A DNA stretch of 7,741 bases from a virus. Lineage: Duplodnaviria > Heunggongvirae > Uroviricota > Caudoviricetes. The stretch is from positions 1-7,741 of IMG/VR virus record IMGVR_UViG_2534681836_000018; one strand, given 5' to 3'. Under the pieces are notes generated by a model, which was not told the DNA's origin, did not search any database, and saw nothing but the letters and a program-made list of their open reading frames with translations. Positions 1-7,741 of this stretch are shown one piece after another. A program made the position numbers and the translations under genes. Position 1 is the first letter of the stretch; the number at the start of each line of letters is the position of its first letter.

Positions 1-627
<627 letters not shown>

Positions 628-1832: not shown

Positions 1833-2272
1833 ATTTTGCCCTCAGACTGGCGCGAGAGATGGGGAGGCCTGACTGGCGCGCCATGCTTGCCGGGATGACA
1901 TCCACCGAATATGCCGACTGGCGACATTTTTACCGCACGCATTATTTTCAGGATACCCAACTGGATATGCATTTTTCCGGGCTGATGTACGCTGTACTCA
2001 GCCTGTTTTTTTGCGATCCGGATATGCATCCCTCTGATTTCAGTCTGCTTGTCCCCCGGCATGAGGAAGAGCAGGTGGAGAGGCTGGATGAGGACAAAAT
2101 GCTGATGCAGAAAGCGGCAGGACTTGCCGGAGGCGTCCGGTTCGGTGGGGACGGAGGGCGCGATATTTTATCGTCTGCGGATGTGGCGGATGTCAGCGAG
2201 GATGATGTCGCATTAATGATGGCTTCAGCGGGGATTTCCGGAGGTGTGAGATATGTCCCAGCCGGTTGGTGA
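1808..2272 (+). CDS. T: T portion of the gpG-T fusion chaperone, expressed by -1 frameshift from G (fusion spans 1401..2272)
   Basis: The -1 frame from 1808 translates GKVFDGELNFALRLAREMGRPDWRAMLAGMTSTEYADWRHFYRTHYFQD...GGVRYVPAGW-stop, matching the lambda gpT region. Track ORF 1859..2272 is the ATG-initiated tail of this frame, not an independent gene. Confidence 0.85.
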   Translation, partial: GKVFDGELNFALRLAREMGRPDWRAMLAGMTSTEYADWRHFYRTHYFQDTQLDMHFSGLMYAVLSLFFCDPDMHPSDFSLLVPRHEEEQVERLDEDKMLMQKAAGLAGGVRFGGDGGRDILSSADVADVSEDDVALMMASAGISGGVRYVPAGW

Positions 2273-5855: not shown

Positions 5856-6599
5856 ATGACACAGACTGAATCAGCGATTCTGGCGCATGCCCGGCGGTGT
5901 GCGCCTGCGGAGTCGTGCGGCTTCGTGGTGAGAACGCCGGAGGGGGAGCGGTATATCCCTTGTGTGAATATCTCTGCAGAGCCGGAGGCGTATTTTCGTA
6001 TTGCACCGGAAGACTGGCTGTGGGCAGAGATGCAGGGGGAGATTGTGGCACTGGTCCACAGTCATCCCGGTGGTCTGCCCTGGCTGAGCGAGGCCGACCG
6101 GCGGCTGCAGATAAAAAGTGCACTGTCCTGGTGGCTGGTCTGCCGGGGGGAAATTCATAAATTCCGCTGTGTACCACATCTGACAGGACGGCGCTTTGAG
6201 CACGGGGTGACGGACTGTTACACGCTGTTCCGGGATGCCTGCCATCTGGCGGGAATTGATATGCCGGATTTTGAGCGTGAGGATGACTGGTGGCGCAACG
6301 GTCAGAACCTTTACCTGGACAATATGGCGGTCACCGGCTTTTACCGGGTGCCCCTGTCCTCTGCACAGGCGGGCGATATCCTGCTGTGCTGCTTTGGCGC
6401 ATCGGTGGCCAATCATGCCGCCATTTACTGCGGCAACGGTGAACTGCTTCACCATCTGCCTGAACAACTGAGTAAACGGGAGAGGTATTCTGAAAAATGG
6501 CAACGACGAACGCATTCTGTCTGGCGTCACCGCCACTGGTCCGCATCTGCCTTCACGGGGATTTACAACGATTTGGCCGCCGCCTCAGCCTGTATGTGA
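5856..6599 (+). CDS. K: Tail tip assembly protein gpK (JAMM/MPN-like N-terminal domain plus NlpC/P60-like C-terminal domain)
   Basis: 247 aa matching lambda gpK. JAMM motif HxHx7Sx2D is present as HSHPGGLPWLSEAD at 6057-6098; C-terminal half has the Cys (DCYTLF) and His (NHAAIY) expected of an NlpC/P60-type fold. Start taken at the first ATG after the L stop. Confidence 0.9.
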   Translation: MTQTESAILAHARRCAPAESCGFVVRTPEGERYIPCVNISAEPEAYFRIAPEDWLWAEMQGEIVALVHSHPGGLPWLSEADRRLQIKSALSWWLVCRGEIHKFRCVPHLTGRRFEHGVTDCYTLFRDACHLAGIDMPDFEREDDWWRNGQNLYLDNMAVTGFYRVPLSSAQAGDILLCCFGASVANHAAIYCGNGELLHHLPEQLSKRERYSEKWQRRTHSVWRHRHWSASAFTGIYNDLAAASACM

Positions 6600-7177
6600 A
6601 CACGGCAGCGGAAGCCATCCGTGCCCTGTCGATGCAGATGCCGGGATTCCGCCGTCAGATGAACGAAGGCTGGTACCAGATACGTATTCGCGGTGAGGAC
6701 ACGGCACCGGAGGCGGTGTACGCCCGTCTTCACGAACAGCTGGGTGAGGGAACGGTCATCCACATTGTGCCGCGACTGGCCGGGGCCGGAAAGGGTGGAC
6801 TGCAGATTGTGCTGGGGGCGGCAGCCATCGTGGGCTCGTTCTTCACTGCCGGGGCATCAATGGCGTTATGGGGTTCAGCCCTGGCAGCCGGTGGTTTTTC
6901 TGCCACCACGATGCTGTTTTCACTGGGGGCCAGCATGATTCTGGGTGGTGTGGCCCAGATGCTGGCCCCGAAGGCAAAAACACCGGATTACCGCGCAACG
7001 GATAACGGCAGACAGAACACGTACTTTTCCTCGCTGGATAACATGATTGCCCAGGGGAACCCGATGCCGGTGCCTTATGGTGAAATGCTGGTTGGCTCCC
7101 GGCGAATCTCCCAGGACATCAGTACCCGTGATGAAGGCGGTGACGGGAAGGTGGTGGTTATCGGGCGGCAGGCATAA
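6497..7177 (+). CDS. I: Tail tip assembly protein gpI
   Basis: 226 aa matching lambda gpI (MATTNAFCLASPPLVRICLHGDLQRFGRR...). Overlaps the 3' end of K out of frame by 103 nt, as in lambda. Confidence 0.92.
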   Translation: MATTNAFCLASPPLVRICLHGDLQRFGRRLSLYVNTAAEAIRALSMQMPGFRRQMNEGWYQIRIRGEDTAPEAVYARLHEQLGEGTVIHIVPRLAGAGKGGLQIVLGAAAIVGSFFTAGASMALWGSALAAGGFSATTMLFSLGASMILGGVAQMLAPKAKTPDYRATDNGRQNTYFSSLDNMIAQGNPMPVPYGEMLVGSRRISQDISTRDEGGDGKVVVIGRQA

Positions 7178-7220
7178 AACATAAAAAATCCCGCAGTGCT
7201 CACGGACAGGAACTGCGGGA
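7176..7220 (-). terminator. Candidate rho-independent terminator oriented for the - strand
   Basis: Perfect 9-bp stem (7189-7197 TCCCGCAGT / 7212-7220 ACTGCGGGA) with a 14-nt loop. On the - strand it is followed by TTTTTTATGTTTT (+ coordinates 7188-7176, overlapping the I stop). There is no T-run on the + strand side. Confidence 0.5.
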
Positions 7221-7279
7221 GAGTTACGAAGATTAACTATAGAGAGTTATTCTTATGTCACGACAAAAAACATTAATGC
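7176..7279 (-). ncRNA. Candidate ~100-nt small RNA (promoter-to-terminator unit with no ORF), hypothetical
   Basis: Bounded by the candidate - strand promoter (7286-7313) and the - strand terminator (7189-7220 plus U-tract). The longest ORF on either strand in this interval is 12 codons. Purely sequence-based prediction. Confidence 0.25.
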
Positions 7280-7285
7280 AGAGAA

Positions 7286-7313
7286 ATTATTAGCACCACA
7301 GTCAGTTTGTGAA
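7286..7313 (-). promoter_or_regulatory. Candidate sigma70 promoter on the - strand (-35 TTCACA, 16-nt spacer, -10 AATAAT)
   Basis: Reverse complement of 7308-7313 is TTCACA (5/6 to TTGACA) and of 7286-7291 is AATAAT (5/6 to TATAAT), spaced 16 nt apart. A second TGTGAA copy lies at 7316-7321. Predicted start near 7279, reading toward the terminator at 7220-7189. Confidence 0.25.
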
Positions 7314-7351
7314 AATGTGAAGATATTCAGAAGTTTTATTCAGTCATGATA

Positions 7352-7384
7352 CAGGCATCCTCCGGGATGCCTGTTGTTTTTGTG
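7352..7384 (+). terminator. Candidate rho-independent terminator oriented for the + strand, just upstream of J
   Basis: Perfect 9-bp GC-rich stem (7352-7360 CAGGCATCC / 7365-7373 GGATGCCTG), extendable to 10 bp, with 4-nt loop TCCG, immediately followed by TTGTTTTTGTG (7374-7384). Confidence 0.55.
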
Positions 7385-7415
7385 CGTAACAGTTATCACA
7401 GTAAAGGGGGAGACA

Positions 7416-7741
7416 ATGGGCAAAGGTGGCGGCAAGGCGCACACGCCGGTAGAGGCAAAGGACAATCTTAAGTCCACGCAGATGATGAGCGTGATTGATG
7501 CCATTGGTGAAGGGCCGATTGAAGGTCCGGTGAAGGGGCTGCAGAGTATCCTGGTGAACAAAACCCCGCTGACGGACACGGACGGTAATCCTGTGATACA
7601 TGGTGTGACAGCGGTCTGGCGCGCCGGGGAGCAGGAGCAGACACCACCTGAAGGCTTTGAGTCCTCCGGGGCGGAAACCGCACTGGGCGTGGAAGTGACG
7701 AAGGCAAAGCCGGTGACGCGCACCATTACGTCCGCGAACAT
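7416..7741 (+). CDS. J: Host specificity / central tail fibre protein gpJ, N-terminal ~108 codons (3' partial, runs off window end)
   Basis: ATG at 7416 preceded by RBS AAAGGGGGAG (7403-7412). Translation MGKGGGKAHTPVEAKDNLKSTQMMSVIDAIGEGPIEGPVKGLQSILVNKTPLTDTDGNPVIHGVTAVWRAGEQEQTPPEGFESSGAETALGVEVTKAKPVTRTITSAN matches the lambda gpJ N-terminus. Missing from the ORF track only because it has no stop inside the window. Confidence 0.93.
   Translation, partial: MGKGGGKAHTPVEAKDNLKSTQMMSVIDAIGEGPIEGPVKGLQSILVNKTPLTDTDGNPVIHGVTAVWRAGEQEQTPPEGFESSGAETALGVEVTKAKPVTRTITSAN

Follow-up and report, generated by a model that had tools for sequence, protein, structure and literature searches.

An antisense small RNA of the PasB/EcOnc22–24 family predicted between tail genes I and J of a lambda-like prophage

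Why should a tail operon with otherwise tight junctions leave 238 nt between genes I and J, and does this spacer encode a product of its own? We addressed this question for the window, the whole 7,741-nt stretch of phage DNA under analysis, in which V, G, T, H, M, L, K, I and the start of J form a lambda-like tail operon on the plus strand. According to the ORF list, the genes V, G, T, H, M, L, K and I all overlap or are separated by at most about 26 nt, in contrast to the I–J spacer at 7178–7415, which extends from the TAA of I (7175–7177) to the ATG of J (7416–7418). The layout described in the first-pass annotation was thereby confirmed, and the lambda gap, put there at about 60 nt, indeed measures 60 nt (lambda 15445–15504).

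The upstream flank is tail assembly gene I (6497–7177, plus strand), assigned by Pfam Lambda_tail_I and the ORF list, and the downstream flank is the 5′ part of the host-specificity or tail-tip gene J (7416–7741, plus strand), assigned by the RefSeq annotation of an identical copy. RefSeq gives gene I 193 residues with a start at the end of K (locus L001, 8419–9000). The Pfam domain begins at residue 16 of the 226-residue ORF that opens at 6497, and this ORF overlaps K by 103 nt (6497–6599), as in lambda, so the true start probably lies upstream of the one given by RefSeq.

An antisense unit predicted in the I–J spacer

The core of the spacer is AT-rich, as had been estimated by hand, with a GC content of 30.5% at 7221–7351, whereas I has 60.2% and the J fragment 59.5%. 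Its description as a moron-like insert likewise proved apt. Both lambda and a close Escherichia coli prophage (DEC9B) lack the insert and have a 60-nt gap, so the element is sporadic, as expected of a moron; its presence or absence falls between the same two genes, it has its own predicted promoter and terminator, and its GC content is 30.5% versus about 60% in the flanks. By BLAST the spacer is frequent in Stx-converting phages and E. coli prophages, and among the matches listed the only annotation was the start of J, overlapped by the query by one base.

A consensus scan recovered the minus-strand σ70 promoter that had been proposed for this spacer (7286–7313), with a −35 element TTCACA at 7313–7308, a 16-nt spacer and a −10 element AATAAT at 7291–7286. 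The latter is sub-consensus relative to TATAAT and aligns with TATAAT in strain E2348/69 and with AATAAT in strain Sakai, whose allele, which has this same −10, is expressed (Tree et al. 2014, PMC4104026). The scan yielded two promoter-like sites versus 0.5 expected from shuffled sequences, and four terminator-like sites versus 0.8 expected. The hairpin and U-tract noted about 100 nt from the promoter, with a 3′ end near 7180, correspond in our analysis to a predicted RNA of about 97 nt running on the minus strand from 7279 to 7183. Its 5′ end was placed at the G found 7 nt beyond the −10 element and its 3′ end at the end of the U6 tract, and its assignment to the PasB/EcOnc22 family is based on homology and fold. 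The predicted fold has a free energy of −22.4 kcal/mol (z = −2.5).

The intrinsic terminator identified by scan and fold (7189–7220, minus strand) comprises the stem TCCCGCAGT / ACTGCGGGA, with 9 base pairs between 7189–7197 and 7212–7220, followed by A and U6 (7188–7183), and ends 6 nt from the stop codon of I. Its core, CCCGCAG/CTGCGGG, was unchanged in 199 occurrences carrying 16 different loops. Just 5′ of it lies the candidate seed UUAAUCUUC (7228–7236, minus strand), the most conserved single-stranded stretch of the RNA body, with an AUCUU core that is invariant in 45 RNA alleles; for PasB, a seed has been proposed in the single-stranded region just 5′ of the terminator (Zhu et al. 2026 preprint). 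In the window allele this segment is predicted to pair weakly with a stretch of AAN repeats and is partly paired in the fold. These A-rich repeats, AAGAAUAAC or (A-A-N)3 at 7246–7254 (minus strand), keep their position across alleles and may constitute a motif for the distal face of Hfq, for which an ARN rule has been described (Tree et al. 2014, PMC4104026).

The promoter is immediately preceded, at about 7314–7349, by a block of approximately 35 nt, TCATGACkGAATAAAAnTTCTGAAnnTCTTCACATTT, which is nearly invariant across the alleles of the gpI-anchored sample described below. It contains a CRP-like palindrome, TCTGA-N6-TCACA (7316–7331), that agrees with the CRP core at 9 of 10 positions. Matches to the CRP core numbered two in the window versus 0.19 expected, and the site at 7316–7331 additionally has a matching TTT flank. 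The other, a one-mismatch match to TGTGA-N6-TCACA (TGTGAGATATGTCCCA, 2245–2260, plus strand), lies near the T/H junction and is probably due to chance. The non-activating and activating conditions used for PasB were presumably LB and glucose-containing DMEM, respectively, and a higher level in the former would fit CRP control. The level of PasB was indeed higher in the non-activating than in the activating condition (Pearl Mizrahi et al. 2021, PMC8550237). We put forward CRP–cAMP control of the sRNA promoter through the invariant block as a hypothesis only, because the centre of the CRP-like site lies near −44.5, compared with the canonical −41.5 or −61.5, and this position is counted from a start that is predicted and unmapped.

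The sRNA cassette sits between the stop codon of I and a second, terminator-like hairpin on the plus strand, found by scan and fold just upstream of the ribosome-binding site of J (7351–7384; hairpin ACAGGCATCC/GGATGCCTGT at 7351–7374, then TTGTTTTTGT), which folds with −19.9 kcal/mol (z = −3.9 against shuffled controls). We read this hairpin as belonging to the operon junction and not to the minus-strand sRNA unit. In the 60-nt lambda gap, AACCGCC-TGCG-GGCGGTT is followed by TTGTCATTT, and the DEC9B prophage with the lambda-type junction has the same arrangement. This lambda hairpin and its T-run are also on the plus strand and just before the ribosome-binding site of J (L295, 746–805, equal to lambda 15445–15504; L296, 21157–21216), so that it is analogous to window 7351–7384 in position but not in sequence. 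We know of no described function for the lambda I–J hairpin. Judging from lambda biology, the J-proximal hairpin could act as a terminator or stabiliser that is read through by Q-modified polymerase.

A check for covariation had been proposed in the first-pass annotation. In the J-proximal hairpin, a compensated exchange of a C–G for a T–A pair distinguishes the main variants, of which there are two (58 and 31 loci). RNAalifold on 12 alleles identified the sRNA terminator as the only common structure and found no covarying pair in it. The terminator stem never varies, which is why covariation is absent, and the structure thus gains no independent statistical support from the alignment. An attempt to assign a strand to the J-proximal hairpin from the asymmetry of G–U versus C–A pairs was abandoned, since its minor variants are reciprocal recombinants, each with one arm from either main type, and wobble pairs therefore allow no assignment.

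Relationship to PasB and EcOnc22/23/24

A search of the whole window against Rfam, the check suggested for the spacer, returned no match in the spacer at gathering score and none in 6900–7741 at E ≤ 1, so the element has no Rfam-named family. The Rfam-curated sRNA families covered by this negative result include AgvB (RF02702), AsxR (RF02703), Esr41 and IsrK, none of which gave a covariance-model match in the spacer. An identity with AgvB or AsxR, suspected from CA-rich runs, was accordingly dropped, as those RNAs also lie at the PR′ moron site, and HnrS was set aside because it corresponds to EcOnc10–12, another locus. These three RNAs of EHEC prophages resemble the window element in being prophage-borne, Hfq-binding, short non-coding morons, a likeness that for the window allele depends on predicted Hfq binding, and AgvB and AsxR carry ARN motifs in their bodies. 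They differ in location, with AgvB and AsxR at the PR′ moron site and HnrS at another position within the late genes, and at 51–66 nt they are shorter than the window RNA. Protein-coding lambdoid morons including sodC (Juhala et al. 2000) are likewise autonomous, with their own promoter and terminator, a deviant composition and presence or absence between conserved neighbours; unlike them, the window unit is non-coding.

The proposal of an independent small RNA opposite the late operon finds support in homology to PasB and EcOnc22/23/24, which occupy the same spacer on the same strand. PasB (E2348CN_0006), classed as a pathogenicity-associated sRNA, is an 83-nt RNA of prophage PP6 in EPEC E2348/69, located on the minus strand at NC_011601 1466343–1466261 (Table S6, Pearl Mizrahi et al. 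2021, PMC8550237), an interval that in the RefSeq record lies between tail assembly gene I and gpJ, antisense to both. Its length derives from read coverage and the RNA was validated by Northern blot with the probe AATCCCGCAGTGATCGCGGAGCT; in Δhfq its log2 change is about −6.8, and it takes part in 37 RIL-seq interactions, where it nearly always occupies the second position of the chimeras (Pearl Mizrahi et al. 2021, PMC8550237).

Compared with PasB, the window element has the same I–J slot, the same antisense strand and the same AUCUU core just 5′ of the terminator. In the alignment the promoter is 91% identical, and no difference is seen in the terminator stem (CCCGCAG/CTGCGGG) or the U-tract. 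The RNA body, in contrast, is only about 70% identical with a longest common run of 16 nt, the terminator loop is different, and the −10 element is AATAAT instead of TATAAT. The 5′ end of PasB mapped by read coverage lies about 15 nt downstream of the start predicted for the window; the window RNA may therefore be about 83 nt long and not about 97 nt.

The second set of homologues comes from EHEC O157:H7 Sakai, where EcOnc22 (Sp15, Stx1 phage), EcOnc23 (Sp14) and EcOnc24 (Sp11) were reported as homologous Hfq-CRAC peaks (Table S2, Tree et al. 2014, PMC4104026). EcOnc22 runs at about 85 nt on Northern blots and is destabilised in Δhfq (Tree et al. 2014, PMC4104026); its targets were entered as unknown in a 2021 review. 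In the current Sakai record all three peaks are in or adjoining the I–J spacer at the same offset, antisense to the operon. The current RefSeq coordinates are shifted by about +142 nt relative to those in Tree et al. 2014, which leaves the EcOnc22 coordinates ambiguous by themselves, and identity was settled by the probe sequence: the first 23 nt of the EcOnc22/23/24 probe (GGGAGAGAACGATGAAGATTAAC...) are perfectly complementary to the segment of the Sakai antisense RNA that immediately precedes its terminator. The window shares with EcOnc22–24 the slot, the strand, the AATAAT −10 element, the invariant upstream block and the terminator stem, and differs in a body that is about 71% identical and in the allele of the −35-to-−10 spacer. 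EcOnc22–24 are about 85–91 nt long and Hfq-dependent, compared with the roughly 97 nt predicted for the window RNA.

Judged by sequence and position, PasB and EcOnc22–24 are alleles of one locus. We did not find this link in the literature searched, and neither the 2021 PasB entry nor the 2026 Pas preprint mentions EcOnc22–24. That an Hfq-dependent sRNA exists at the I–J position is known from CRAC in 2014 (PMC4104026) and RIL-seq in 2021 (PMC8550237). By its homology the window element is a diverged, unannotated member of this known sRNA family, and the element itself is not a discovery; what is added here is the link between PasB and EcOnc22–24, the size of the allele family, the cassette arrays, the slot shared with sodC and the invariant CRP-like block. 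Homology, position and strand, promoter and terminator signals and the conservation pattern were established on the window itself, whereas expression, Hfq dependence and trans interactions are taken from the literature on the E2348/69 and Sakai alleles only.

Alleles, cassettes and prevalence

Variation at this junction was surveyed in 80 IMG/VR loci selected for a gpI with at least 97% identity to that of the window, together with reference loci. The I–J spacers in this sample fell into length classes of 235–261, 343–344 and 849–853 nt. The short class is a mosaic in which the sRNA terminator, the J-proximal hairpin with its T-run and the ~35-nt upstream block are invariant, and the −35-to-−10 spacer and the RNA body come in several interchanged alleles. 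Searching for the pattern of the invariant block enlarged the sample to 172 units, 53 of them unique, with 45 unique RNAs of 90–101 nt. The window RNA, PasB and EcOnc22–24 fall into this one alignable family. All 45 RNAs share GCGUUA at the 5′ end, a U-run, AAN repeats and the terminator with the AUCUU core just before it; the rest of the body varies.

Some spacers hold more than one unit, with two in tandem at a 179-nt period in L178, L233 and L253 and three in L219; the period is close to the difference between the 238 nt of the window and the 60 nt of lambda. Each unit of these arrays has its own copy of the invariant block, and some differ in body and terminator stem (for example CTCCCG...CGGGAG). 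The same slot also accommodates other elements. In the 849–853-nt class, represented by L012, L016, L020 and some 20 further IMG/VR loci, the sRNA promoter and the J-proximal hairpin have given way to sodC, which encodes a Cu,Zn superoxide dismutase (Pfam Sod_Cu, E = 4e-32) on the minus strand. A PasB-like body and terminator, still intact from about +1, follow the hairpin of sodC itself; this RNA may be a 3′-UTR-type sRNA. The 343–344-nt class (L046, L056 and others) keeps the sRNA unit and has the J-proximal hairpin swapped for about 100 nt, a segment that ends in a bidirectional-looking terminator, AAACCCCGGTATC-AGCA-GATACCGGGGTTTTCTTT. At about 5762 (minus strand) in L224, an IS3-family element (OrfA start MTKNTRFSPEVRQRAV...) lies between the invariant block and the −10 element of the sRNA, and this insertion is a natural knock-out of the unit. 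In the literature searched we found no description of the ~179-nt cassette with its tandem arrays, of the 45 alleles, of the CRP-like block or of sodC in the same slot.

The clade of window-type RNAs, delimited at 80% identity or more, occurs at 1,744 places distributed over 1,247 of the 5,426 complete E. coli genomes, compared with 956 complete E. coli genomes for canonical PasB; the exact window allele (at least 99% identity) was found in nine records. No listed genome match of either the window-type clade or canonical PasB carries an annotation, and as the family has no Rfam model, genome annotation misses all copies. A published census of Pas sRNAs used BLAST with a word size of 28 and a coverage filter of >75% (Zhu, Shabalina and Storz 2026 preprint). 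With a maximum common run of 16 nt between the window RNA and PasB, we infer that this census could not have counted the window clade. Scanning one genome per species with the invariant block gave 88 matches versus about 70 calculated for chance, and only that in Escherichia albertii was clearly real among the 80 matches listed; being so close to chance, the scan says little beyond a narrow host range.

On its sequence, the source prophage of the window is a mosaic. Window 547–7741 matches the strains F2_407_2_2, DEC9B and 7_33_46A at 98%, and window 1–700 matches a different prophage in the same three; in DEC9B, the only one examined in this respect, the prophage matching 1–700 has the short lambda-type I–J gap. 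The whole window is contiguous in none of the complete E. coli genomes searched. Positions 1–546 are IS DNA inserted in tail gene gpU, so that this prophage has a tail operon interrupted upstream of V. The IS DNA includes an IS3-family OrfA fragment (Pfam HTH_Tnp_1, minus strand, 100–510), which IS30 adjoins in relatives. It also holds the only Rfam match above gathering score in the whole window, a full-length isrC match at 356–478 (minus strand, 150 bits), which was rejected as a phage sRNA, since it sits on the 5′ region of the IS3-family transposase gene and marks IS sequence.

Possible roles of the antisense RNA

We consider it probable, with good confidence, that the spacer encodes an Hfq-dependent trans-acting sRNA of about 97 nt, an allele of PasB/EcOnc22–24 that would be made in the lysogen. 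According to this model, a non-coding moron cassette of about 179 nt would constitute an sRNA gene antisense to the tail operon, with the σ70 promoter at 7313–7286 directing initiation near 7279 and the intrinsic terminator ending transcription at about 7183. The predicted product has a long, mostly unstructured A/U-rich body followed by the terminator hairpin with its U-tail. By homology, the RNA would be produced in the lysogen, bound and stabilised by Hfq, and would base-pair in trans with host and prophage mRNAs, with UUAAUCUUC just 5′ of the terminator as its likely seed and the (AAN)3 stretch and U-tail as likely Hfq contacts. For the window allele, we infer the exact ends, the seed, Hfq binding and CRP–cAMP control from these features and relatives. 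As its body is only about 70% identical to either characterised homologue, its targets may differ from theirs.

A rather unlikely alternative is that the RNA acts mainly in cis, tuning the expression of J or the processing of the late mRNA by RNase III cleavage or transcriptional interference, instead of or besides regulating the host. Such a role would suit an RNA that is perfectly complementary to the I–J intercistronic late mRNA, lies wholly within the intercistronic spacer antisense to the operon, is driven by a promoter firing head-on into the late operon and keeps its position between I and J in all sampled loci. However, it overlaps neither the coding sequence of I (3′ end at about 7183, stop codon at 7177) nor the ribosome-binding site of J, the 37 interactions of PasB on Hfq are in trans, and the RNA is kept in an IS-broken tail operon, in which regulation of J would be pointless. 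That the body varies freely among phages with near-identical I and J ends could be held against cis action too, but this is non-discriminating, as it is expected of any antisense RNA.

The IS disruption of gpU also means that the locus could be decaying, and the window copy might then be a remnant that encodes no functional RNA and whose hairpins merely insulate or stabilise operon transcripts. Besides the damage by IS elements, the sub-consensus −10, the rarity of the exact allele in its nine records and the phages in which the promoter is replaced by sodC or split by an IS would be in line with decay. We nevertheless judge this very improbable, given that the promoter, the invariant block, the seed core and the terminator are intact and match those of expressed homologues, that the expressed Sakai allele likewise has AATAAT, and that the clade is maintained in 1,247 genomes. 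Least credible of all, to the point of being nearly negligible, is that the spacer codes for a small protein. The earlier statement that it contains no ORF longer than 12 codons holds for ATG starts but not for a GTG-initiated frame of 26 codons on the plus strand (7196–7276), the sole ORF of at least 20 codons entirely within the spacer; a 6-codon AUG ORF lies near the RNA 5′ end. Read by eye from the sequence, neither has a Shine–Dalgarno element, and between alleles the indels, including those across the GTG frame, are not multiples of three and the U-run varies in length, so that the reading frames are not conserved.

Beyond the trans-acting sRNA that we favour for the window, we tentatively raise the possibility that the I–J junction is a dedicated slot for antisense cassettes, in which a fixed block and terminator drive sRNA bodies that recombination exchanges for one another and that are sometimes arrayed in twos or threes. 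If this were true, a single control circuit, possibly responsive to catabolites, would be shared by prophages that bring different target specificities to it, and the unnamed clade of the window, commoner than canonical PasB, would have a regulon of its own. The family is far more diverse than a high-stringency BLAST census can reveal. Its invariant upstream block provides a testable hypothesis of regulation, and its variable bodies lead to the testable hypothesis that targets diverge in EHEC and EPEC strains with several alleles.
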